This document shows, piece by piece, positions 4,722-63,459 of a stretch of 64,000 bases of DNA (its first letter is position 1; each line of letters begins with the position of its first letter). Position numbers and translations under genes: made by a program. A model generated the notes under the pieces. The model saw only the letters and a program-made list of their open reading frames with translations. It did not search any database and was not told the origin of the DNA. The stretch is from a virus, in the UHGV virus genome UHGV-0212524, one strand, 5' to 3'.

Positions 4722-7700
4722 ATGAGAAAACATTTTCAGCGTCACGCGATTAGCTACGCGTTATCGTTAGCTTACGGTCACCAATCCTTCGTTACCCGGA
4801 ATACGGGAACGACTAACGACGCACATATCGATCATTACATTCAAAACGAAGAAGGTGTTCTGTCGAATAACCGTCATTTCATCGCTGATACCATGGCGGA
4901 ATACCAACCGAACGGTGACGCAACGACCGAGGGTCAGTCGTTACACATTATCGGTTATTGCCACATGTATATCGCAACAAAAGACGAAAGATGGTTAGAT
5001 GCTGCGAAACACGCCTGGGATGCGTACAACACGTACTTCTACGCCGGACAGCCTATTCCGACAACACCCCAGCGTCGGATTTGTAACTGGTTAGTAAACG
5101 GGAAAGAACCGGTATTAGCACACTATCCTATTCACCCTACGGAACCTACCAACGGCGGGTATAAATGTGTTCCTGTAAGGTTTACAAATGGCCAATGTAA
5201 GATACCGCACGGTGCACCTTTCTGGGGAGAGTATTTGGATATCTGTACGTTTGCATATCGTGGCCACCCTGCCTGGGCCGCGATTAACGCAGATGTACAG
5301 ATTATCAAGGAAGACAAAGAAGGGTCGATTAATTGGGAAGACGTTTTAACTCACGTTATTACTAATCCTGATAAGCCTTACGAAAGCACAGCTTGGGTCG
5401 ATTGGCCAACACTGCTAAATAATACTACAGGTTACACCCCGCTTTGGGGCGGCTCTGCAACAAAAGCTCCTAAACACGACGTTGACTGGATAATTGCCTG
5501 GACGGGTAACAAAATCCAGGATGGTGAAATTATTGAGACGGGATTAGCAGACGCTGATAAAGGTACCGTACAGTTAAAAGACACACAGTTAAACGGTGTC
5601 TATTTAATTAACTACGCGGTAAAACTTCCTGTCGAACACGGCGGTTACGAATTTAAACGTAATGAGCCGTGGCACAACCGTCCGGTCCACACACCGTTCT
5701 TAGGGTCGAAAAACCAATACGGTAACGCCGCTGATGCTGAACTGTGGTTTATCGACGCCTGTTATTTGCTGTGGCGAATCACAGGTGAAGAGAAATACAA
5801 ACAAGCATTAGACTGTGCTTTCTACACCGCACATGAGTACACGTATATTGATGCGACAGATAAATTCTTCCGTCGTTCTACCGCTGCGGATACACCGTTT
5901 ACTGACGGTATTTCGTACGATTTCGATTACCCAGATACCGTAAGTGCCACCTACGGCCGTGATGAGAATGGAGACATTACCATCCACGTGCCTGAAGCGG
6001 CGCAGCACTTTATGGAGCAAAAAGCGGTTAGGTTCAGGATTAACAAAGACTCTAAACTACGTGTCACGTACGGTGGAGTTTGTAAGAATGGCGATCCTGT
6101 CTACTGTAAAGTGATGGTGAACATTAACCCTGCGAAAGCTGATACCGAGGAGGTAAACTGGTACGGTTTAACCTTACCTCGGTCTACGGTAAATACCGTT
6201 AAACAGTACGATGTTGACTTAGGCCAACTTTCCCGTATTACCACCCCAGAAGGGGGAGACTACCTGATAGCTGAAGCCCGTGCGTGTTCGGACTACGGTG
6301 GTTGTACGTGGGAAGAACGTTTTGAGGATAGCATTTACGATGGTCGCGCGGGTACCGTGGTAGAAGCGGAATTTCCTGATGACAGTGCCGGGTTTATTAT
6401 CGGGTTTTGGTTAACCGCTGAAGAGAAGGTAAAACCCGTTTCTATTGTTTACCGTGCAGACGCAGATTTTAACTTGCGTTTAGTCGACAGTGATAACTGG
6501 CTTTGGTGGTGGATGTTACCCAACACAAACAACGAATGGCGTCAGGTAACGTTGAATCCGGATGAAGCCACACTTTCCGGTTATCAGCCAGACCACACAG
6601 ACGCTGACCCTAAACCTTCAGCACCGAATTTCGATAAGGTGGATCAGGTCACGATTCTTCCTGACTCCACAGTTGACCATGCACACTTTGCTTACTATTG
6701 TGTTAACGATGTCCCACCGGTCTTTAATAAAGACGATGGTTATATTTTAACCTTCCGTATTGCCTTACGCGGTGGTGCAGAGTTTGATGCAAAGGTGGGT
6801 GATTGTACGATTGTAGATTACCGATTGGATTCGTTAGCGTACTGTCCGGGTACGATACCGTTCACGAACAGCTACTTAGAAGGTTCAGAACAGTTAGGTG
6901 CTTGGCACGGGATGCCTTATCCAGGTTATCAGTATCCGTTTATGTACAGTATCCACAAAGACGACCGGTATAAGTTGTGGTTAGATAACCAGATTCAATT
7001 CCTGCACGATTCGCAGTTGGCTTACCAACAGCAAATTGGGGAATTAGGACCTGGTTGCGCAGCTTATATCTGGAACCGTTGGGACAACTACAGCTACGGA
7101 GAAGCGGATACCTGGACGACGTTCCATTGGGGTGATGACCATCCTTGGGCAGGGTATCAGCCTCGCGCGTTTCATGCTGCGTGTCGGTGTTGGTACGAAC
7201 TGAAACTGCGAGGTAAAGACGTTCCCGAGGCGTTAACAACCTATATTGACAACTGGGTGAATTGGCTAGGTGGGTTTGTGGATCGGTTTAACGGCCACAC
7301 TCCTAACGAGTTCCCTACAGCACCGGATAAAGCTGTTTGGGTGGAAAACGACTTCACCGCACATATGTGTGGGTTGTGGTTAGCAGGGTGTTGCTGGGCA
7401 TTACTCGCCGGTGCAACGAATCCGAACTACGAAAAAGTGGTTAATGCGGCAATTAAGGAGTTAGGTGAAGGGTTTACGATTACCTCAATTCCGAATAAGC
7501 CGATTAATGGAGCGTGGTCTCCAGCCGCTCGAGAGTCTTCTGATAACGGAATGGCTTATGGGTTCTACACTGGAGAAGTGCTACGTGCGTTAGGTCTCTA
7601 CGTTACTTATAAAACCTACGGACCCAACGCTAATATTTATCGTGACTTAGCGATTACTGACCACAGTCAAGCGGTCTTAGACGTTACGTTAACGATAGAA

Positions 7701-25225: not shown

Positions 25226-25705
25226 TTATTCTACCGGGTGCAACATAGTGCCGGTATCCGGAATGCTGCCTTCGTGACATCTGAAGAACGTTACACCTTT
25301 ACCTTCACCCGTTTTGTAGTTGACGGTAGAATACGCAAACGTTGGGGTTTTCGACAGTAACCCGTTTACACGGTAATAGCGCTCACCGGTAACAACGTTT
25401 AAGTTACCGTCCACCTTGCCTAACAGGTCTTTATAAAGTTGCGGAGATTCAATTTTACCTTCGTCCCATGTAGCGACCCAATTCGCCCCTGTATCCATGA
25501 CTAACACCGAAAGGGGCATCAGTTTTAGGCTAGACGGTACCGGTTTAAAATCGTCGAATTCTTGAGAAGCAGCTGTACAGGTGTAAATGACCATATCGTG
25601 TTGGTCAACAGGTACGGTGGAGAACTGACCTTCTGCGTTCGGCTGAATAGCACAACTTGCCAATGTCATTACAAAAGCAACGACCACGAGAATGCGTTTT
25701 AGCAT
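25226..25705 (-). CDS. lipoprotein (signal peptide with lipobox LASC)
   Basis: Start at internal Met (MLKRILVVVAFVMTLASC) with AAGGGTGAG RBS; isolated on opposite strand between terminators. Confidence 0.6.
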   Translation of the reverse strand: MLKRILVVVAFVMTLASCAIQPNAEGQFSTVPVDQHDMVIYTCTAASQEFDDFKPVPSSLKLMPLSVLVMDTGANWVATWDEGKIESPQLYKDLLGKVDGNLNVVTGERYYRVNGLLSKTPTFAYSTVNYKTGEGKGVTFFRCHEGSIPDTGTMLHPVE

Positions 25706-51345: not shown

Positions 51346-52497
51346 ATGCGAAATATTATTTCTAAACCAGGACATGTCAAGATCCTAAAAGAACTGATGG
51401 ACAGATGCTATAATCAGACTTGGCCTCTGCCAAGCTTAACCATCGAGTCTTCATTACAACGCGAGTTGTTTGGTTATAACTTGGGCTGCTGTGTACTGAG
51501 TGAATACGATGAGATTATCGCGCCTGTCGATGTCTGTACTTACGATGAAGAAATTGAAGGTTACCAGTTCGAGGTTTACACAAATTCTGGACTAAATTAC
51601 CGTAAACTCGTTGTTAGAGAAAAGAGTAGCGGCCGGAAGATTATGTTTAAGGTCTTCCCAAGCGGTAAAGTCAGTAGTTTATGTTTTCAGCTTGAGCAAG
51701 TGTCCTTTCACGGTGCAGCTATTTTAACTAAACCAGAACTCGCGTTATTAAGTGGGTTAATTGGTTTTGAAGCAAAAACCATCAAAGTTGAGCAGGAACT
51801 CACACGAAACGATTTCGGCTCGACCTGGTACGAAAGTTTCTTCCGCTACGAAATGTTAAGTGATAAAGCTATCAAGCTCACTTACCGTTCTACCGACGAT
51901 CTCGTTTACCACATTTTAATTAGCGGCGAACCCCACCTGATTATTGAAGACAAAGGAGAAAATCAAATGTCTGCCTTAAGAGACGAATTAGCCCAATTCA
52001 TTCGTGACGTCGAAGAGAAAAGCAAGAGCGAACACATTTTCTCACAACGCTATCCTGAACTTATTGACGAGACCACCGATAGTGTCGTCGACGGTATACG
52101 CATTTTCCCAAGTGGTCTTGCAATCTACCGACTGCCCAGCGTTAACCAGCTTAAAGTCATGGAAATGCTAAAAGACGTTTTAGCAGAAGCGGGTTGGGAA
52201 TATCGTTTCGATTGCAATTTCGAAGGGATGGCGTTATTCGTTACAAAGAAAAATTATACGTTGTCAATCGATCTGCCCAAAAGTCAATATTACAGTTTCT
52301 TCCCGAAAGCGGATGACCGCACTGAAAAAGAACCTGCGTTGTTACTCGATGCGGCAGAATCCAATACGCTAATGATGCGTCTGCGGATGGTTGACAAAAA
52401 GTTAAATACCGGCCATTTAACGACGATCGGTAAAGATTACGGTTGGAAATCTGTCGAACCGTACGGCAGTCAGCTGCTGTTTGTTGCTGACCTTTAA
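51346..52497 (+). CDS. hypothetical protein, GW..V...G.QLLF C-terminal module family
   Basis: 383 aa; AGGAG RBS; C-terminus GWKSVEPYGSQLLFVADL. Confidence 0.6.
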   Translation: MRNIISKPGHVKILKELMDRCYNQTWPLPSLTIESSLQRELFGYNLGCCVLSEYDEIIAPVDVCTYDEEIEGYQFEVYTNSGLNYRKLVVREKSSGRKIMFKVFPSGKVSSLCFQLEQVSFHGAAILTKPELALLSGLIGFEAKTIKVEQELTRNDFGSTWYESFFRYEMLSDKAIKLTYRSTDDLVYHILISGEPHLIIEDKGENQMSALRDELAQFIRDVEEKSKSEHIFSQRYPELIDETTDSVVDGIRIFPSGLAIYRLPSVNQLKVMEMLKDVLAEAGWEYRFDCNFEGMALFVTKKNYTLSIDLPKSQYYSFFPKADDRTEKEPALLLDAAESNTLMMRLRMVDKKLNTGHLTTIGKDYGWKSVEPYGSQLLFVADL

Positions 52498-52564: not shown

Positions 52565-53338
52565 ATGAAAGTCCATTTAGACGATATCTTTAAAACCGAA
52601 CCGTATATGATCGAAGGCCCGCTAACGTCGCTACTATTTGCCGATAGACTAGATCGAACGTTGCAATTACAATCGGTCGAATCTGCACCGATTAACGATG
52701 TAGAGCGCTACGAGCGCATCAACCATACGCGGGGTGAGTATCGTCGCTATAAGCCAAACTCACTAACCATCAAGCTTTGGAAAGTGAGCACAGGTAAAGT
52801 ATTAACTTATCGCGCTGTTGGTAGTTATTACATTCAACAGGCCAAAGAGTGGTTAGAAAAAGTTAAAGAACTGAACTTCGATCTACTGAGCAAAAAACTG
52901 CGCGATCATAACGCCAGTTTGCCGATACGTAATTATTTCTCCACGATTGAAAATAGTCGTTGCTTCGTTTCCAGCAAGTCTATGATATCGCCTGGGGCTG
53001 ATGTTCAAACAACACTGAAAGATGTGATTGTGAAGAAAATCTTTCATGAATCTGAACACGTTGGATTTCGTATCTATTTAACGCACAAGAGGCCATTTAC
53101 CGTGATTCATGTTGTTACCGCACCCGAAGGCTCGGCAGTCGTACGTGAACTTCCTGACGCACGTGACCGTAGCCCTAATGAGCCACTTTACTTAATGTCA
53201 GGAACAAAATCAGAATCTTTGATGTCCCGTTACAGCATGGTTGATGTTGTTGATACTGCTATGAAGTTAGGTTGGAAAGAAGTACAGCAGCACGGCAAAC
53301 AATTGCTGTTTATCGCAGATGTAAATCTCAATAACTAA
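52565..53338 (+). CDS. hypothetical protein, GW..V...G.QLLF C-terminal module family
   Basis: 257 aa; C-terminus GWKEVQQHGKQLLFIADV. Confidence 0.6.
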   Translation: MKVHLDDIFKTEPYMIEGPLTSLLFADRLDRTLQLQSVESAPINDVERYERINHTRGEYRRYKPNSLTIKLWKVSTGKVLTYRAVGSYYIQQAKEWLEKVKELNFDLLSKKLRDHNASLPIRNYFSTIENSRCFVSSKSMISPGADVQTTLKDVIVKKIFHESEHVGFRIYLTHKRPFTVIHVVTAPEGSAVVRELPDARDRSPNEPLYLMSGTKSESLMSRYSMVDVVDTAMKLGWKEVQQHGKQLLFIADVNLNN

Positions 53339-53933: not shown

Positions 53934-53962
53934 GGTGGGGTGTAAACCCCACCTTTTTTTTG
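53934..53962 (+). terminator. rho-independent terminator
   Basis: GGTGGGG-TGTAAA-CCCCACC + TTTTTTTT. Confidence 0.8.
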
Positions 53963-53984
53963 TTCTCTAACATTAAAAATAATC

Positions 53985-54046
53985 TCAGATATATATTACT
54001 TAGGTGAGAGTACAAAAGCTCTCACTTAACTAAAACCATTTTAGGA
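53985..54046 (+). promoter_or_regulatory. conserved promoter-like motif + stem-loop + conserved 5'UTR/RBS (copy 4 of 4)
   Basis: TCAGATATATATTACTTAGG + GTGAGAG..CTCTCAC + CTTAACTAAAACCATTTTAGGAG before ATG 54056; near-identical to copy 2. Confidence 0.55.
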
Positions 54047-54055
54047 GTATTAACG

Positions 54056-54427
54056 ATGAAAAGCGAATTGTTCAAAGACCCGTTTGTTGTATTACTGATC
54101 GTTACTCGCGCTGCCACTAACCCAGAAGACCTGAAACGTTTACTTGCCAACGAAGCATACCTTATCGAACAGCGTGACGCGCAGTTAGCCAAACCACACG
54201 CTGAAGGCCAGGTGAAAGACCTTATCTCTATTTTCCGTAACGAAGAATGGCGTAAAAACAACCAGCTGTCCGACAACCTGACGGTTGCAATTGCAAAACT
54301 CTTGACACTGTTCAATCTTGACAAAGACATTAACCAAAGCCTTTCTACAGAAGAACGTCTGGAGATGATAAGAGGTATCGGAGATAGCTATACGCAGATT
54401 AAAGCATTCCCCAACACAGTTATTTAA
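54056..54427 (+). CDS. hypothetical protein
   Basis: 123 aa; TAGGAG RBS within conserved promoter/5'UTR unit. Confidence 0.55.
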   Translation: MKSELFKDPFVVLLIVTRAATNPEDLKRLLANEAYLIEQRDAQLAKPHAEGQVKDLISIFRNEEWRKNNQLSDNLTVAIAKLLTLFNLDKDINQSLSTEERLEMIRGIGDSYTQIKAFPNTVI

Positions 54428-54473
54428 TTTCATGTTTTGTGGGAACTTCCCCATAACCCGAAGGAGCATTTCA

Positions 54474-54935
54474 ATGAAAACCTTTACCACATTCTTAATA
54501 ACCATTTTAACTTTCGGCCTCAATAGCGCACACGCCGCTATCAATAGCTGGGAACAAATACAAAACCCTGGCCAGGTAGTTTACGAAATCGAAGACACCG
54601 CCGGAAACGGACTGTCTATCAACTGTGACACTGAAACTGCGAATCGCAAATTTTACGGTCGGATGGTTTGGTATTACGGGGAACCCGTAGGTGCAACTAA
54701 CGCTGAAGATAACACGATGGATATTGTCGTAAACGGCAAAACCTATAACATCCCTACCGTGGACGGTAGTGACAAAGCAGAACTCGCTTGGGTTGCTTTC
54801 GTTAATGCTATCGGTAATGCCAAAACTTTCAGTGTGAGTATCAATGGTAACGATGCCGCTAACTTTACCGTAGAAGGCGATCGTTTATCTGAAACTTTCT
54901 TCCAGAACTGTGGACACACCCGTCCTAACAAATAA
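54474..54935 (+). CDS. secreted small protein (signal peptide), first of five
   Basis: Start at internal ATG with AAGGAG RBS; MKTFTTFLITILTFGLNSAHA signal-like N-terminus. Confidence 0.55.
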   Translation: MKTFTTFLITILTFGLNSAHAAINSWEQIQNPGQVVYEIEDTAGNGLSINCDTETANRKFYGRMVWYYGEPVGATNAEDNTMDIVVNGKTYNIPTVDGSDKAELAWVAFVNAIGNAKTFSVSINGNDAANFTVEGDRLSETFFQNCGHTRPNK

Positions 54936-54963
54936 CTAATAATCTTTTTTAGAGTGCGTGAAA

Positions 54964-55350
54964 ATGAATATCAGAACTATACTTTATACCATCATTATTT
55001 TCTGTGCAATCGGTATTACTGGCACTTATGCTTTCGGCGATTCGGACGTCCGCCATTACGAACCGGCTCCTGACTCACCCATTATCAACCCGGACGAGTC
55101 ACCTACGTTAATGCGCAGTTTCGGTAAACTGCAAGTTTATCGCTTAGTACGCGGTGAAACGTGTACCGGATTACTCATTGCCGACACCCGTGCACAAGTC
55201 TACCAACGTCTGACGGATATCGCCTGCGAACAACCAAAAGTCATGTCGGTCAGTATTCATCCGTTAGAGGTCGGAAACTATACTGCTGTGGACTTCTTCC
55301 ATAATGCAGAACTGATTGGCCGTATTACTTTAAATCGTAGCGCTGAATAA
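54964..55350 (+). CDS. secreted small protein (signal peptide)
   Basis: MNIRTILYTIIIFCAIGITGTYAFG hydrophobic N-terminus; 2 Cys in mature part; start uncertain (54958 GTG or 54964 ATG). Confidence 0.5.
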   Translation: MNIRTILYTIIIFCAIGITGTYAFGDSDVRHYEPAPDSPIINPDESPTLMRSFGKLQVYRLVRGETCTGLLIADTRAQVYQRLTDIACEQPKVMSVSIHPLEVGNYTAVDFFHNAELIGRITLNRSAE

Positions 55351-55368
55351 TTTAATGGAGAATTTACA

Positions 55369-55851
55369 ATGAAACGTTTACATACCCTGATGTTCTTCGT
55401 GGCTATTCTGTTCACAGGCTTTACCTTTAACGCAGAAGCGGCTACCGTAAAACAAGCACTTAGCTGTAACCCGGAAGCCTGGGCTGAACAACCTGGAGCG
55501 TGTCCTGATATCAACACACTCTATACTGACGATGCGACTTATAAAGCCGCAATCGATAAAGCGTTGAAACCGGTCGGACTAGACGGATTATTCGGTAAAG
55601 ATGGTGTAATGAATGGTCCTGGCGGCGATGTTATTCCCGTGCAAATCAACGGCAAAGTCTGGCTTGAGTCTACCGCTTGCAAAAGCAATGCTTGTGGTTG
55701 GGAATACATCACGACGCTTTATAACCCTCAGACCCATGTCGTAGTAGGTTACTATTACAACGTCGACCCAGGTTATCTGGTTTGGTTTGGCGATATCGGC
55801 GTTAATGAATTCGCCTATCTGGTTAAGAAATACGTAGCTGCGGTTAACTAA
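55369..55851 (+). CDS. secreted small protein (signal peptide)
   Basis: MKRLHTLMFFVAILFTGFTFNAEA signal peptide with AxA-like site; 4 Cys in mature part. Confidence 0.55.
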   Translation: MKRLHTLMFFVAILFTGFTFNAEAATVKQALSCNPEAWAEQPGACPDINTLYTDDATYKAAIDKALKPVGLDGLFGKDGVMNGPGGDVIPVQINGKVWLESTACKSNACGWEYITTLYNPQTHVVVGYYYNVDPGYLVWFGDIGVNEFAYLVKKYVAAVN

Positions 55852-55866
55852 TTTAAGGAGTCTGTC

Positions 55867-56277
55867 ATGAAAACGTTTATCAAAACTTTACTCGTTGCTG
55901 TAACTGTTCTGTTCTCTCTTAACGTAGCAGCAAAAACAGTAAAACTACCGGCGGGTATCAAATACGTCAACAGTACCGACGAATTCTACTGCACAGAAAT
56001 TGACGGTCTGTATTGCCAGACAAAGAATTTGTTTGAATACAAAGGTAACAGGTATGTTTTCGTTGTTGAGCAAGGCGGTGCCTGGTGCTACGACAGCCCT
56101 ATGTCGGTGCTCAATCTGGAAACTTGGAAAGCACAGAAAATTGAATACAAAGACAACCAACTGTGTTCAGGCGAAAACAAACCGTTCTTCAAAATCAAAA
56201 ATGGTGTGCCGACTGTAGGTGTTATCGACACCTCTGGAGCACCCATCGTTGTCGCTCAGGACAAACTTAAAATCTAA
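55867..56277 (+). CDS. secreted small protein (signal peptide)
   Basis: MKTFIKTLLVAVTVLFSLNVAA signal peptide; 4 Cys; AAGGAG RBS. Confidence 0.55.
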   Translation: MKTFIKTLLVAVTVLFSLNVAAKTVKLPAGIKYVNSTDEFYCTEIDGLYCQTKNLFEYKGNRYVFVVEQGGAWCYDSPMSVLNLETWKAQKIEYKDNQLCSGENKPFFKIKNGVPTVGVIDTSGAPIVVAQDKLKI

Positions 56278-56287
56278 GGAGTAAACC

Positions 56288-56677
56288 ATGCGTCTTATCT
56301 GCGCTTTGTTGGCGTTTTTCTCAATCGGAGTTATGGCTTCTACACACATCGACGATTTATTACTTACCCCGGCAACGAACACAGACTATCACTACAACCC
56401 ACCGGGTTTTGAAGTCTGCGAAGGCGATGCAGGCGAGTGCCAAGAAGTTGGCGCAGATGGACGCTATATACTCGTAAAAGCAGACGGCGGAACAACCTGC
56501 CCTGCGGGTTATTATTTCGTACTTGACGCTGTAGCAAAAGAGGTGCTTCCTGTAACGACCAAAACGTGTGACCCCACAGTTGTACTAACGCTTGCGAAAA
56601 GCAAATCACGTGACCGTCATCTTATCGTCATCGAAGAACGCGGTGAGATGCTAGGCGCTATCGAATTAGATTACTGA
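56288..56677 (+). CDS. secreted small protein (signal peptide)
   Basis: MRLICALLAFFSIGVMAS signal-like N-terminus; 4 Cys; AAGGAG RBS; terminator follows. Confidence 0.55.
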   Translation: MRLICALLAFFSIGVMASTHIDDLLLTPATNTDYHYNPPGFEVCEGDAGECQEVGADGRYILVKADGGTTCPAGYYFVLDAVAKEVLPVTTKTCDPTVVLTLAKSKSRDRHLIVIEERGEMLGAIELDY

Positions 56678-56688
56678 TGTGTAGTCTT

Positions 56689-56726
56689 GACCCCGGTTCG
56701 TTCCGATTCGTCCGGGGTCCTTTTTA
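56689..56726 (+). terminator. rho-independent terminator
   Basis: GACCCCGG..CCGGGGTC hairpin + CTTTTTAC after the secreted-protein cluster. Confidence 0.7.
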
Positions 56727-56756
56727 CGACCTGTTTTACCTAAAGGAGAATTAAAA

Positions 56757-57233
56757 ATGCGTTTATCTAATGTTTATCAAGCGGCCCAATTCCATCACGA
56801 ACTGACGGCTAAGCCTGAGTATATTCGCCACAACTTAACGGTGGCTTGGAAACTGTTATTGATTGCTGATGCAGCACGACACAACGACCAGGAAACTATT
56901 ATCAAAACCGTGCGTACTTTACGCCCTATTGATCTGGAAACAATTTGGTCGTTTGACTTAACTCGAATTTATCATCGTCGCTTTAATGCGGCGGTGGATG
57001 CGATACGTCCTTATTTCCACTATTTGCAAGCAACATCAGACTGTGGTCCATCCTTAGAGTGGGTCTTGGTACAAAGCGTATGGAGCGATTACATTTATCT
57101 CCTATCTTTAGAGACGGGTGAATGCATTATCGCTAACGAGGTATTCTCAACCAACGCTGAAATGTATCGTTCCCACGCTACTATCCAGGGTGTCTCACAG
57201 CCTATCTTATCACTCACGCACTTAGGGCTGTGA
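56757..57233 (+). CDS. hypothetical protein
   Basis: 158 aa; AAGGAG RBS; flanked by terminators. Confidence 0.55.
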   Translation: MRLSNVYQAAQFHHELTAKPEYIRHNLTVAWKLLLIADAARHNDQETIIKTVRTLRPIDLETIWSFDLTRIYHRRFNAAVDAIRPYFHYLQATSDCGPSLEWVLVQSVWSDYIYLLSLETGECIIANEVFSTNAEMYRSHATIQGVSQPILSLTHLGL

Positions 57234-57241
57234 TTAGCCCG

Positions 57242-57270
57242 GCCCCGCTGTGTACGGGGCTTCTTTTTTG
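57242..57270 (+). terminator. rho-independent terminator
   Basis: GCCCCG-CTGTGTA-CGGGGC + TTCTTTTTTG. Confidence 0.75.
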
Positions 57271-57287
57271 CCCAAGGAAACTGAAAC

Positions 57288-57896
57288 ATGAACGAAATTA
57301 CTTTGGTTCGTTTTATTGAAGCGATGCGTCAAAACGAAGCTAATCCACACTCTCCGTTATTTATTGATTTGATGGAAGAAGAAGTAGAAGGGTTCTTAGC
57401 GTACCCGCGTTTGAAAGCATATTTTGAACGTAAAACACCAACCGCTTACGAAAAGCTAATGTACGCGTTAGATAACCGTACTACGTTGAACACCACACCG
57501 TTTAAAGCGCTGGAAGCAATAGACCCTACCGGGGGTGCAGGTATCCCACAACGTGTTGTGTTCTACTACATCGACAACGGGCGTATTAAGGCCGACGTTG
57601 TAAATTGGATCTCTGAAGGGGAAATCCCAGAAACGCGTACCTTTAACCTCTGCCCAGTGGAAGAAGGTTGGGTTGCAGGAACACATTATTCCTATCCGTA
57701 CCAAAGCATCAAATCGCCATATCTGTATCCGGTGTATTTGGATGACGTTACACCAGGGAAATGTGTTCCCGTTACCAATCTGATTTGTTTACTGACGATG
57801 GAAGTTGTTGCGTCAGATGCAGGCCAGGCTTGGGTTGAGCAATCGAAAAATATCCAAAACTGGCAGGAGATGGGTTACAAACTCTACCAGCCGTAA
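57288..57896 (+). CDS. hypothetical protein
   Basis: 202 aa; AAGGAAA RBS; terminator follows. Confidence 0.55.
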   Translation: MNEITLVRFIEAMRQNEANPHSPLFIDLMEEEVEGFLAYPRLKAYFERKTPTAYEKLMYALDNRTTLNTTPFKALEAIDPTGGAGIPQRVVFYYIDNGRIKADVVNWISEGEIPETRTFNLCPVEEGWVAGTHYSYPYQSIKSPYLYPVYLDDVTPGKCVPVTNLICLLTMEVVASDAGQAWVEQSKNIQNWQEMGYKLYQP

Positions 57897-57950: not shown

Positions 57951-57980
57951 ACACCACGCTCCGTGAATATGGAGGTGGAC

Positions 57981-60485
57981 ATGTTAAAAGTTGAACGTAT
58001 TGTACTTAAAGGATTTACCGGAATGGGGTTACACGAAATCGAAACCTTCGATTTTACTATCCATTCCCCAACCACCATTATCCTCGGTGGTAACGGCTGC
58101 GGTAAGACCAGCTTACTGTCCGTGTTTCTACCTATCGCACCTTCGAAATCCGAATTCCGTGACGGGGGTTCTTACACCAATATCTGTTTGGTTAACGACC
58201 ATCGTTACAAATTTAAGGTTGCACGTAAAGGCAACTCATTGGTTTGCGATATCGAGAACCTGACGACGGGTACCAAAATCGTCGAGCAAGGTAATGCGAA
58301 AGTGTATAACTCTCGCGTAGAAGAAATCACGGGCATTACAAAAGAGATTAAAGAGTTACTGAACGGGGAAGTGCTTTTAACGGATGCAGGAACGGAACTG
58401 CGCCGTAAGTGGTTCTACCGTTTAAGTACGTCAGACTTAACTTACGCGTTAGGTTTTTATCAACGTTTACGAAAAAACCTGACGATGCTAAACGGTGGTA
58501 TTGAAATCACCAGCCGCAAGATTGCAGAGTTGCGTACCCGCGTAATTGATAACGAAGAGGAACGTCAGCAATTAGCAACGCGGTTAAAAGCGTTAGAAGC
58601 GGATTTACGTGAACTCAACAAACAGATTGAACAACTGCCTGGTCTGAATCGTGACGTTACGGTGGCAACGATTCAATCGCTATTGCTTAAAATCGAAGCA
58701 CCGATTAATGCTATCTTGGAACACCGTGGCGGATTACCTACGGAAGAACAAGTAGAGGAAGCACGACGGATTGAAGCCACTGCCCGTGAAGCGGTGGTCT
58801 CTGCTGAAACAGAACTATCCATGCTAAACAAAGATTTGTCTTTGTTGATGGACGAGTCCACTCGCCAAGATTACCTGATGCGGAATCACGAGGGGTTAAA
58901 AAACACGGTTGCGAAACTACGCGAGTTAATAAAGCAGTGGGACACTGAGCACCTTTTCCCTGAACTGTTTGCAGAGACCGTTAACATCGACCAGCTTAAA
59001 GCAGCAACCGATGCGCGTGTCTGGGGACAACGTTTAGGAACAACACTGGATGCTATTAAGTCAACGGAGCGGTTGAACGTACTGGAAGAGAAACTGTTGA
59101 CCTTAGACCAAAACTCATCTGGGTTGCGTGACAGGTTACAGCGTGTTGAAAATGTATTGCAGAATCTCAACCACGAACGGAATCACTATTTGGAAACCGC
59201 CGAGGTTGATTGTCCGCAGTGTCAATTTAAATTCCGTCCGGGTGTCCGTCGTTCTTTGCCTGAATTGGAAGAAGCCATTCGTGGACAAATGGAGCAACGT
59301 AATACGTTACAGACTCAACTTGATTCCGTATTGCGAGACCGTACGGAATTAGAGTCGGACGTTAATTACATGCGTCAAGTACGGGAAATCGTTTTAACAT
59401 ACTCGAAAGACCCGGTATTGAGTTTGTTCTTTAAACGTCTCCAGGAGCGGAATGTCTTTACGGATAACCGCAGTCAGTTTGGCAGTCTGTGCGCAGAGTT
59501 CGATCGTGAACTTTATTCCGCAATTGAGTACCACGAAACGAAACAGCGTTTTGCTAAAGCGGAAAAAGAGTGGGAAAATGCGGTTGCAGCGGTAGGTAAC
59601 GTTGACGGTGCACTACAGCAGAAAATTGCCTTCCAGCAGGAACGTTTGGGTAAGGCAACAGAAACGCTCTCAGAGCGCCGTAGAGAGCACGCAGTTGCTA
59701 ATGATACCTTTTGTTATCTAAACGAACTTAAAGTCACTGTAGACAATTTTAATGCGGTTTTTGAGCGTTTAGAGAACGACGTTAAGGTAACATTAACCAA
59801 CACGGTGGTCGAAACGTTATTAAACGCCCGAGAAAACAAGTTGGATGCGTTCACCACAGCACGGGAAAGGTACCGTCAGATGGAAAACGAACTCAACCAA
59901 CTTACTGCGTTAGAAAAGGAGTTATCGGATTTACAAGCGCAGCAATTTAATAACAAGCTGATGATTCAAGCGTTCTCGCCCGAGAAAGGGGTATTACGCA
60001 AATACTTCTACAACGCTATCGTGAGAATCACAGAATTAATGACGCGATATATCGAACAAGTCTGGACCTACCCTATGCGGGTCATGCCGTGTGACTTAAC
60101 CGACGGTGACTTAGACTACACGTTCCCAGTGCAGTTGAAAACTCATCCTGAACCGGTACCTGACGTGCGGAAAGGGTCGAAAGCGCAGCGGGCCATCTTT
60201 AATTTGATGTTTCGTTTAACCGCTTACAAAGCCCTGAAACTTCATCAGTATCCGCTACTGTTGGATGAACCGTCAGAAGGGATGGATGAGGAACACCGAA
60301 ATAATCTTGTCGGGTTTATTAAAACCCTGGCGAATTCCGGTGAGTTCTCTCAGTTACTGGTGGTATCTCACGAAGCAGAAATTCATTCAAAACTTAACGA
60401 AGCCGCATACTGTGTTATTGAACCTGAAGGCGTAACACTGCCTGCGGTTTACAACGAAGGAGTAAAAATTGTCTACGCAAACTGA
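57981..60485 (+). CDS. Rad50/SbcC-like ATPase (Walker A/B, coiled coil, central CxxC zinc hook)
   Basis: Start at ATG 57981 (GGAGGTG RBS); GGNGCGKTS Walker A; long coiled coil; central CPQC; LLLDEPSEGMD Walker B; VVSHEAE. Confidence 0.6.
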   Translation: MLKVERIVLKGFTGMGLHEIETFDFTIHSPTTIILGGNGCGKTSLLSVFLPIAPSKSEFRDGGSYTNICLVNDHRYKFKVARKGNSLVCDIENLTTGTKIVEQGNAKVYNSRVEEITGITKEIKELLNGEVLLTDAGTELRRKWFYRLSTSDLTYALGFYQRLRKNLTMLNGGIEITSRKIAELRTRVIDNEEERQQLATRLKALEADLRELNKQIEQLPGLNRDVTVATIQSLLLKIEAPINAILEHRGGLPTEEQVEEARRIEATAREAVVSAETELSMLNKDLSLLMDESTRQDYLMRNHEGLKNTVAKLRELIKQWDTEHLFPELFAETVNIDQLKAATDARVWGQRLGTTLDAIKSTERLNVLEEKLLTLDQNSSGLRDRLQRVENVLQNLNHERNHYLETAEVDCPQCQFKFRPGVRRSLPELEEAIRGQMEQRNTLQTQLDSVLRDRTELESDVNYMRQVREIVLTYSKDPVLSLFFKRLQERNVFTDNRSQFGSLCAEFDRELYSAIEYHETKQRFAKAEKEWENAVAAVGNVDGALQQKIAFQQERLGKATETLSERRREHAVANDTFCYLNELKVTVDNFNAVFERLENDVKVTLTNTVVETLLNARENKLDAFTTARERYRQMENELNQLTALEKELSDLQAQQFNNKLMIQAFSPEKGVLRKYFYNAIVRITELMTRYIEQVWTYPMRVMPCDLTDGDLDYTFPVQLKTHPEPVPDVRKGSKAQRAIFNLMFRLTAYKALKLHQYPLLLDEPSEGMDEEHRNNLVGFIKTLANSGEFSQLLVVSHEAEIHSKLNEAAYCVIEPEGVTLPAVYNEGVKIVYAN

Positions 60486-62772: not shown

Positions 62773-63459
62773 ATGTTTCGTATTTTCTTTCTTTTACTGG
62801 TAACACTTTTCGCGTTTAACGCATACGCATCCAAATCCGCGCCCAATGCCAAACACCATCGTGAATTCGAAATGATTCAAGACCGTTTCGAACGGGTAAA
62901 ACCGTTGATTGTGGAAATCTCTCGAAAGCAGGGTGTCGATCCTAATTTGATGACCACGCTAATCTATCGAGAGTCACGGTTTAATCCGAAGGCGTATAAT
63001 CGAACGTCTAAAGCGCACAGTCTGGTTCAGATGCTACCGAGCACAAAGCGCAATTTGCTAAAACTCTACGGTGCCGAAATCGGACTTAGTCGCAATGCGG
63101 ATTTGTACAATCCTCGTAATGCGGTGCTATTGGCTTCCGTCTACGTTAAACATTTAGAAAAGGGGTTGACTAAACGACTCAAACGCAAGCCCACTATTGC
63201 AGAAATTGCATTGGCTTATCACTGGGGTGAAAGTGGTGCACACGCCAGGATTAAAAGCAAGTCTCGGGCAGCACAACGAGAAATGGCGAGCTTTATGAAA
63301 GATGCAACGTTCTACAGTGCGAAAATCGACAAGCCTGTAGCATCTCGTCAGCTTGCGTTTGCGAAGAAACCAGAACGCCAGATTCAGTTAGCGGAAGTTA
63401 ACCGAATTTGGGATACGATAAACACCAGTTTTCCATTTAAACAAGGAGTCACCCTTTGA
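62773..63459 (+). CDS. secreted lytic transglycosylase (SLT domain)
   Basis: Start at internal ATG (GGAGAA RBS); signal peptide MFRIFFLLLVTLFAFNAYA; YRESRFNPKAYN...LVQMLPST fits SLT ES..NP..Q motif. Confidence 0.6.
   Translation: MFRIFFLLLVTLFAFNAYASKSAPNAKHHREFEMIQDRFERVKPLIVEISRKQGVDPNLMTTLIYRESRFNPKAYNRTSKAHSLVQMLPSTKRNLLKLYGAEIGLSRNADLYNPRNAVLLASVYVKHLEKGLTKRLKRKPTIAEIALAYHWGESGAHARIKSKSRAAQREMASFMKDATFYSAKIDKPVASRQLAFAKKPERQIQLAEVNRIWDTINTSFPFKQGVTL

Follow-up and report, generated by a model that had tools for sequence, protein, structure and literature searches.

The 64,000-nucleotide stretch of the virus genome UHGV-0212524 (the window, by which the whole stretch is meant) carries, at 54474-56677, a cassette of five consecutive small genes, designated w1 to w5, whose products are all predicted to be exported. 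The cassette belongs to a jumbo phage related to Salmonella phage SPN3US and Erwinia phage Asesino, it includes a gene (w3) for a divergent member of the Ivy superfamily of lysozyme inhibitors, and parts of it are found, with its promoter motif, in genomic islands of Escherichia coli. The explanation that is favoured here, by analogy and at a little short of an even chance, is that these genes form an early periplasmic battery directed against the muramidases of incoming phages, i.e. a form of superinfection exclusion.

Neither exclusion by early proteins that are exported nor inhibition by proteins of the Ivy type is new in kind. Three findings are new: a lytic jumbo phage encodes a protein with the Ivy fold, a small family of beta-meander proteins with predicted export is specific to jumbo phages and linked to E. 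coli YfjS, and there is clear evidence that E. coli islands have captured this phage operon including its promoter, two genes of which are kept in more than 40% of genomes.

Predicted export of the five proteins

The original prediction, made from the sequence alone, had described five consecutive small signal-peptide genes at this position, and this was borne out by the open reading frames (ORFs) and by a signal-peptide scoring rule of our own (positive n-region, uncharged hydrophobic core of at least 8 residues, small residues at -3/-1) that was applied to the 69 likely genes of the window. Under this rule w1 to w5 score 5.1-6.2, and a score of at least 5 is reached outside the cassette only by a lipobox protein at 25226-25705 (-) and by an SLT endolysin at 62773-63459; given 7 positives among the 69 genes, the probability of a run of five by chance is at most 1.2e-4. 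The size range of 130 to 160 amino acids (aa) given earlier is correct at its upper end and becomes 128-160 aa at the lower, as w2 and w5 have 128 and 129 residues, and the 2 to 4 mature cysteines that had been noted agree with counts of 2, 2, 4, 4 and 4 in w1 to w5 (Table 1).

Conservation points in the same direction, as 15 diverged homologs of w5 share an AxA-type cleavage site in one alignment column despite their diverged signal sequences, and the signal sequence of w3, MKRLHTLMFFVAILFTGFTFNAEA followed by A at the predicted cleavage site, is kept in its E. coli homologs. Taking the scoring heuristic and this conservation together, w1 to w5 are predicted to be exported via Sec to the periplasm. 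The longest hydrophobic segment among the five is that of w2, which could be an uncleaved signal anchor; the start of this gene was placed at ATG 54964 on the basis of ortholog alignments, GTG 54958 being a start that would give 130 aa. A ribosome-binding site, AAGGAG, lies 7 nucleotides (nt) 5' of the ATG of w1. The mature cysteines of w2 to w5 are invariant or nearly so in alignments of their families, and in w1 the first cysteine (C51) occupies an invariant column and the C-terminal one is kept among phage homologs, the C-terminal cysteine of the related E. coli K-12 protein YfjT lying in a different alignment column. The even numbers of conserved cysteines in w1 to w5 fit the formation of disulfides in the periplasm.

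Table 1. Features of the cassette and its flanks in the window, and copies of its promoter motif in E. coli islands; a slash marks predicted signal-peptide cleavage.
Feature	Position	Strand	Description
Intrinsic terminator	53934..53953	+	Ends upstream unit; 8-bp stem, 6 GC pairs, T8; -17 kcal/mol, z = -3.1
Conserved phage promoter motif	53983..54010	+	TCTCAGATATATATTACTTAGGTGAGAG, 28 nt; 3 copies in window; presumed early promoter of virion RNA polymerase
5' hairpin	54000..54029 (or to 54035)	+	Stable, directly 3' of promoter core; -15.8 kcal/mol, z = -6.0
w0	54056..54427	+	123 aa, no signal peptide; variable accessory gene in first operon slot; matches phrog_27024 (function unknown)
w1	54474..54935	+	153 aa, exported (predicted), YfjT family; cleavage AHA/A; 2 mature Cys
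w2	54964..55350	+	128 aa, exported or membrane-anchored (predicted); cleavage TYA/F or ITG/T; 2 mature Cys
w3	55369..55851	+	160 aa, exported (predicted), Ivy superfamily; cleavage AEA/A; 4 Cys; CKSNAC hairpin loop, residues 104-109
w4	55867..56277	+	136 aa, exported (predicted); cleavage VAA/K; 4 Cys
w5	56288..56677	+	129 aa, exported (predicted); cleavage VMA/S; 4 Cys; motif CPAGYYF.LD...CDP
Cassette-closing terminator	56689..56725	+	GACCCCGG...CCGGGGTC then CTTTTT; -20.6 kcal/mol, z = -3.3
Island motif copy, L016	4931-4958		TTTCAGATATATATTACCT
Island motif copy, L011	4676-4703		One core mismatch
Island motif copy, L003	7031-7058		TTTCAGATATATGTTACCCGGGTGAGAT

A divergent Ivy-superfamily protein

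Among the five products w3 is the candidate with a predicted mechanism, namely the plugging of a muramidase active site. It matches the Pfam family Ivy (PF08816) at E 0.025 over residues 90-133 and the NCBIfam equivalog "Ivy family C-type lysozyme inhibitor" (NF007443) at E 5e-4 over residues 53-133, and the profile of its family aligns with E. coli Ivy at an hhalign E of 3e-4. The conserved inhibitory loop of Ivy is CKPHDC (PMC3660660; 10.1101/2024.04.20.590424), and in a hidden Markov model search of PDB sequences the CK(A/S)(N/H)AC-G of the w3 family falls exactly on CKPHDC-G of Ivy. In the structural model of w3 this loop forms the tip of a hairpin between strands 96-104 and 112-119, and the model as a whole matches the Ivy fold, in which a central antiparallel sheet is packed against helices. 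Both cysteines, the lysine and the next glycine of the Ivy loop are retained (C-K-x-x-x-C-G), and the related alleles in E. coli islands display the loops CKAHAC, CKANAC and CKANTC, the first of which also retains the histidine.

On the other hand, several observations count against a plain assignment to Ivy: the model is of moderate confidence (predicted local distance difference test score, pLDDT, of 69, and about 70 around the loop), the scores stay below the curated cut-offs (15.2 bits against a gathering score of 21 in Pfam and 19.8 bits against 180 in NCBIfam), and the loop is devoid of the histidine and aspartate of CKPHDC, Ser-Asn-Ala replacing Pro-His-Asp. Because the fold and the loop architecture are those of Ivy whereas the canonical motif and the curated thresholds are missed, w3 is classified as a divergent member of the Ivy superfamily and not as an Ivy equivalog. 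Its identity to Ivy proteins (E. coli YkfE; Pseudomonas aeruginosa Ivyp1/p2; PF08816; PDB 1GPQ, 1XS0 and 1UUZ) is just 16-26%, and it differs from them in an additional N-terminal segment with a second cysteine pair (C33, C45) and in its location, since the gene resides in a lytic jumbo phage and in CP4-type islands rather than at the site of the ivy gene on the chromosome. For Ivy and its paralogs, inhibition of C-type lysozyme and, weakly in vitro, of lytic transglycosylases has been described (PMC10139938).

No match to w3 was found among PHROGs or, by tblastn, in a collection of 50,697 phage records, and a phage-encoded Ivy was not encountered in the literature searched. When membership of the other lysozyme inhibitor families was examined, there was no match to the profiles or folds of MliC/PliC, PliG or PliI, and no relationship of w3 to the w5 family was detected (hhalign probability 3.5%). 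The suggestion in the original prediction that the cassette might encode periplasmic inhibitors has structural support for w3, which is Ivy-like by three independent profiles and by loop alignment, while no inhibitor fold can be recognised in w1, w2, w4 and w5.

Jumbo-phage orthologs and a beta-meander family

The window is assigned to an SPN3US/Asesino-like jumbo-phage lineage without a sequenced isolate because of the identity of a structural-maintenance-of-chromosomes (SMC)-like protein, of gene order, and of DNA comparisons with the phage collection and with metagenomic contigs. The SMC-like protein in question (840 aa, 57963-60485), encoded just downstream of the cassette, shows 69% identity to Asesino gp207 and 57% to SPN3US gp186, and the gene order around it agrees with that of these phages, whose genomes measure about 240 kb. 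With 54000-57300 as query, megablast and blastn returned zero matches from the phage collection, and near-identical metagenomic contigs of 168-228 kb were found. The GC (guanine plus cytosine) content of the window is 45.5%.

In these two relatives w2, w4 and w5 have syntenic orthologs in the same order: gp180/gp201 for w2 (50% identity in SPN3US and 45% in Asesino), gp182/gp203 for w4 (34% and 36%) and gp183/gp204 for w5 (48% and 51%). The genes gp180-gp183 of SPN3US and gp201-gp204 of Asesino, which encode hypothetical proteins of Seoulvirus and Erskinevirus, occupy the same position as the cassette, upstream of gp184-gp185 and the SMC-like gene, with two differences in content, as the slot of the Ivy-like w3 is taken there by a w4/w5-type paralog (gp181/gp202) and neither the YfjT-like w1 nor w0, the gene that precedes w1 in the window, is present.

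The products had been described earlier as unrelated in sequence, and this is wrong, since w4 and w5 are paralogs, their families aligning with an hhalign probability of 95% (E 3.6e-8), and w2 weakly matches the PHROG of w5 (E 0.0035; hhalign E 0.022, with the cysteines aligned), which is suggestive of kinship to the w5 family. The w5 family also aligns with gp181/gp202 (hhalign probability 89%), and w2 itself belongs to phrog_9424 (E 6e-42). The w4/w5/gp181 family (phrog_5248, phrog_8968 and phrog_17072, together with YfjS) is characterized by a signal peptide, C-x6-10-C, the motif ILV..GG..C(P)xG(YY)..L(D/N) and a fourth cysteine.

This family is small. Out of 1.84 billion representative proteins, no more than 15 reach E <= 0.001 with the w5 profile; among 11 sequences that were read, all nine full-length ones had a signal peptide and ILV..GG..CPAGYY..L(D/N)...C, the other two being scrambled fragments. 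Homologs of w4 in sequenced phages are limited to SPN3US-like jumbo phages of about 233-249 kb (34 records). An AlphaFold2 model of w5 is a seven-strand beta meander (pLDDT 77) for which no specific PDB match was obtained and which, when compared with the predicted viral protein structures of BFVD, resembled only uncharacterised proteins of Erwinia jumbo phages. Profile searches of the PDB gave no match for the w5 family and two chance-level matches (E about 1) for that of w2. A protein of 2220 aa (P0064) that matched the w5 profile through a repeated motif was rejected as a spurious homolog.

The YfjT and YfjS link

The first protein of the cassette, w1, is assigned to the YfjT family by sequence similarity. 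Its BLASTP alignment with YfjT of E. coli K-12 (b2637), encoded in the cryptic prophage CP4-57, extends over 133 aa at 23% identity (E 2e-14), both proteins have a signal peptide and two cysteines and match phrog_3429, and homologs 74-96% identical to w1 carry the precomputed annotation PF27224 (YfjT). No match to w1 was found by tblastn in the phage collection. A profile search of the PDB with the YfjT/w1 family returned weak immunoglobulin V-like matches (E 0.03), which are at most a hint of such a resemblance.

The neighbour of YfjT, the lipoprotein YfjS, is distantly connected to w5 in turn, matching the PHROG of w5 at E 4e-5 and aligning with the w5 family (hhalign probability 65%, E 6e-5) through the C-x-G-YY-L-D...C motif. 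The adjacent yfjS-yfjT pair of the K-12 prophage CP4-57 (L010, 12682-13616) consists of a w5-like and a w1-family gene and mirrors the phage cassette, from which it differs in that YfjS is a lipoprotein and in that YfjT is just 23% identical to w1. A function for YfjT or YfjS was not found in the literature searched.

Capture of the cassette by E. coli islands

Homologs of w3 with 63-86% protein identity are present in E. coli chromosomes, where they lie in CP4-type islands, flanked on one side by a dynamin-like GTPase/YjcZ/patatin block and on the other by a DUF932/antirestriction/RadC/DUF987/CbeA-CbtA block. Behind the Ivy-like gene, two island types continue, after an identical 15-nt spacer, with a gene for a 136-aa protein 68-76% identical to w4, and at the DNA level the segment 55362-56310 of the window is 78% identical to the islands. 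Remnants of the flanking genes have been left as well: a third island type (L003, 7687-7979) carries a frameshifted w2 pseudogene just 5' of the Ivy-like gene, the C-terminal 54 codons of which are 81% identical to w2, and 3' of the w4-like gene (L011, about 5860-5890) there is a ribosome-binding site with the start of w5, MRFSAHY, truncated by a stop codon. In all island versions the promoter motif (TTTCAGATATATATTAC...) lies behind a terminator and 5' of the captured genes for exported proteins. Compared with the phage cassette, the island copies are chromosomal and partly decayed, w2 being a pseudogene and w5 cut short, and the Ivy-like ORF is fused to the first gene.

The island genes have a GC content of 41-48% and a GC content at third codon positions (GC3) of 0.45-0.49, values that are phage-like, compared with a GC3 of 0.60 for K-12 yfjT. 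Among 5426 complete E. coli genomes, 2300 have an intact Ivy-like ORF and 2366 an intact w4-like gene (about 42-44%), both being annotated as hypothetical proteins. The simplest reading of these sequences is that E. coli took the cassette from a phage of this lineage, and this direction is preferred because a whole group of jumbo phages natively carries w2, w4, w5 and the promoter motif. More than one exchange is indicated by the alleles, as the affinities of w3 and w4 differ: one E. coli allele, which likewise has a CKSNAC loop, shares 84% identity with w3, against only 62% for the sister-phage counterparts, whereas w4 clusters with its sister-phage counterparts (82%).

The first slot of the island cassette in L003 (7098-7640) encodes a predicted exported protein of 180 aa, the N-terminus of which is fused to the Ivy-like ORF in L011 and L016; no homolog of it was found in the phage collection or among PHROGs.

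Transcription unit and variation between sister phages

As the original prediction had noted, the cassette lies between terminators and follows a gene associated with a promoter-like motif. This preceding gene is w0, and the motif proved to be genuine: its form TCAGATATATATTACyTAGGkGAGAG occurs three times on the plus strand of the window (at about 14581, 18200 and 53991), each time with a stable hairpin and a ribosome-binding site 3' of it, and it is kept directly upstream of gp180 in SPN3US and before the cassette in three sister-phage contigs, while in Asesino it lies one gene further upstream, before gp200. Its core, TATATTAC, corresponds to positions 53992-53999. The leader TTAACTAAAACCATTTTAGGAG is common to two of the three copies in the window. 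Motif, hairpin and leader together look like a modular 5' end of early transcripts. It has been described that the early promoters of jumbo-phage virion RNA polymerases share, centred near -10, an AT-rich motif that is conserved and some 10 nt long (review PMC7598289), and because the motif resembles these promoters, we infer that the cassette is transcribed early from a virion-polymerase promoter. The closing terminator is also kept 3' of gp183 in SPN3US, gp204 in Asesino and the w5 genes of sister phages.

While w2, w4 and w5 recur throughout the group, the head of the operon varies. After the promoter the window has the order w0 - YfjT - w2 - Ivy - w4 - w5, which becomes YfjT - w2 - Ivy - w4 - w5 in the sister phage L007, w0 - w2 - Ivy - w4 - w5 in L013-15 and YfjT - YfjT' - w2 - Ivy - w4 - w5 in L017/18, compared with w2 - (w4/w5-type paralog) - w4 - w5 in SPN3US and Asesino. 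The first slots of a sister phage thus hold zero, one or two YfjT genes, and w0 is found in L013 at 42% identity and is absent from L007 and L017. The tandem YfjT-family genes of L017 (3598-4551) encode proteins of 151 and 152 aa with 79% and 31% identity to w1; they are thus strongly diverged, which indicates duplication or repeated acquisition in the first operon slot. On this comparison the operon head is a hot spot for the gain and loss of exported proteins, and the variable slots, like the exchange of gp181/gp202 for the Ivy-like gene, are of a kind typical of arms-race accessory loci. Weak matches of w0 to the AbiA/DRT model of PADLOC (E 0.006) and to the SXP/RAL-2 Pfam family (E 0.002) were also noted and are probably due to chance.

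Possible functions of the cassette

In the mechanism proposed here, virion RNA polymerase would read the promoter motif and transcribe w0 to w5 up to the conserved terminator, the products of w1 to w5 would be exported by Sec, and their conserved cysteines would pair into disulfides in the periplasm, where the C-K-S-N-A-C loop of w3 could plug the active-site cleft of a lysozyme or of a lytic-transglycosylase-type muramidase. From the first minutes of infection, the five proteins would guard the envelope of the infected cell against the peptidoglycan-cleaving and envelope-penetrating proteins of other phages, and CP4-type islands of E. coli have captured the block with its promoter motif, a now decayed w2, both intact genes (Ivy-like and w4-like) and the first codons of w5. 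A precedent is found in phage T4, in which Spackle is an early periplasmic inhibitor of the gp5 tail lysozyme and excludes superinfecting phage (PMC7677548). Spackle (gp61.3) and Imm of T4 resemble the cassette products in being small early signal-peptide proteins that act in the periplasm of the infected cell, which is also the mode proposed for w3; they differ in that five genes are joined here in one operon and in that the models of w3 and w5 consist largely of beta strands. No homology to Spackle or Imm appeared among the Pfam and PHROGs matches of w1 to w5, every PHROG matched by w1, w2, w4 or w5 is of unknown function, and no PADLOC model matched w1 to w5 at E up to 0.1.

The block is regarded as a probable envelope-level shield against other phages because it includes the Ivy-like w3 and because E. 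coli has captured it together with its promoter; the retention of two intact genes in more than 40% of E. coli genomes fits a role that protects the cell. Superinfection exclusion is proposed on the strength of analogy, of the presumed early promoter and of the capture by E. coli islands; muramidase inhibition, its target and an exclusion phenotype are inferred. Phage fitness has been addressed in a PHAGEPACK preprint, in which an Ivy-like fold and a CKANTC loop were noted independently for hypo_04657 of E. coli O121 and knockdown of this gene is reported to have raised T7 fitness (10.1101/2024.04.20.590424). As the single guide RNA used for hypo_04657 maps exactly into the island ORFs (L011, 4810-4829; L016, 5065-5084), this gene is identified as a captured w3 homolog, and the T7 result is taken as a lead and not as proof.

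However, a number of considerations speak against superinfection exclusion. For four of the five proteins neither fold nor family would imply inhibition, the early timing is derived from the promoter motif alone, and the phage's own SLT endolysin, which has a signal peptide, is an equally direct candidate target. The clonal effect on T7 in the preprint, which is the sole phenotype on record, is tiny (efficiency of plating 1.09, 1.5 and 1.0), and the CRISPR interference employed there would be polar on the w4-like gene.

It is this endolysin on which a role in lysis timing would centre, with w3 and perhaps its neighbours keeping the enzyme inactive in the periplasm until lysis in a logic like that of T4 RI/RIII lysis inhibition. 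Such a role is considered unlikely, although the endolysin combines an SLT domain with a signal-peptide or SAR-like (signal-arrest-release) N-terminus, Ivy-type proteins do inhibit lytic transglycosylases in vitro, if weakly (PMC10139938, PMC3660660), and an inhibitor made early would precede a late endolysin. SPN3US and Asesino share the endolysin context, yet their cassettes have no Ivy-like gene; the Ivy-like and w4-like genes persist in E. coli islands that have no phage endolysin, so that these genes must be useful alone; and the turnover of Ivy alleles and of the YfjT-like and w0 slots between sister phages would not be expected of a core lysis function. A cell-protective arms-race role is therefore favoured over one in lysis, since E. 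coli keeps w3 and w4 without phage lysis genes and the content of the operon varies. The same variation argues against a core role in the take-over of the host cell wall, whereby the proteins would inhibit host lytic transglycosylases or other periplasmic enzymes and so stabilise or reshape the sacculus over the long cycle of a jumbo phage or block envelope stress signalling. The Ivy fold of w3 and the early promoter motif would suit this explanation, and Ivy has been proposed to regulate endogenous lytic transglycosylases, but E. coli Ivy inhibits these enzymes just weakly and gave no effect in vivo (PMC10139938), and E. coli would hardly be expected to retain, in 42-44% of genomes, a gene whose product inhibits host enzymes, which together make it very unlikely.

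A different target is envisaged if the cassette is an orphan immunity array that protects the infected or the island-bearing cell against peptidoglycan toxins of non-phage origin, such as type VI muramidase or amidase effectors, muramidase bacteriocins or the lysozyme of the animal gut. Type VI immunity proteins are small and periplasmic and often form orphan arrays, and classical Ivy protects against vertebrate lysozyme. The predicted small periplasmic disulfide proteins, one of them with a lysozyme-inhibitor fold, would match this picture, as would the variable arrays that have built up in the mobile islands of a bacterium living in the gut; even so, it seems quite unlikely, given that searches of Pfam, NCBIfam and PADLOC revealed no similarity to a known immunity family, that the families of w2, w4 and w5 occur only in jumbo phages and in what E. 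coli has captured from them, and that the only recorded phenotype concerns a phage. Virion or injected proteins, finally, are an extremely improbable identity for w1 to w5. Jumbo phages do package many small proteins of unknown function, but the virion proteome of SPN3US (83 proteins, Table S4 of PMC5105663) includes none of gp174-192, its list skipping from gp173 to gp193, and the orthologs of the cassette are thus absent from it; the five Sec-type signal peptides have conserved cleavage sites, and the genes form an early-type operon and do not lie in a structural module. A virion location was rejected on the basis of this proteome, which offers no contradiction to the earlier view that the proteins are exported; on SPN3US signal peptides nothing was found in the literature searched.

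Superinfection exclusion can be extended to a broader proposal, which is put forward tentatively and is somewhat doubtful, that the cassette is a fast-evolving, multi-target exclusion battery, including the first phage-borne Ivy-type inhibitor and a beta-meander family (w4/w5/YfjS) not recognised before, that has been captured repeatedly, with its phage promoter, by E. coli as an envelope-level anti-phage defence in more than 40% of strains. If true, yfjS, yfjT and the widespread pair of "hypothetical" genes of E. coli would be domesticated jumbo-phage exclusion genes, and a case would be on record in which genes of a strictly lytic giant phage have been domesticated. Little is known about the action of nucleus-forming jumbo phages at the cell envelope, for which the cassette provides five small and easily expressed candidates, and the assignment of a function would clarify part of the uncharacterised gene set of E. 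coli in islands known for defence genes. Exclusion factors of this type also have a bearing on the design of phage cocktails and on the prediction of host range.

Other genes of the window

The lipobox protein at 25226-25705 (-) is 159 aa long, contains a classical lipobox (MLKRILVVVAFVMTLASC) and belongs to no Pfam family; it is possibly a spanin-like protein or an exclusion lipoprotein. At 62773-63459 (+) lies the putative endolysin, a lytic transglycosylase with an SLT domain (Pfam E 3e-14). Its signal-peptide or SAR-like N-terminus reads MFRIFFLLLVTLFAFNAYA, followed by S at the predicted cleavage site, and the enzyme would get to the periplasm without a canonical holin. Upstream of the cassette, the products of 51346-52497 (+) and 52565-53338 (+), of 383 and 257 aa, have a C-terminal segment of about 60 residues in common (BLASTP E 1e-10) and are taken to be paralogs on this similarity.

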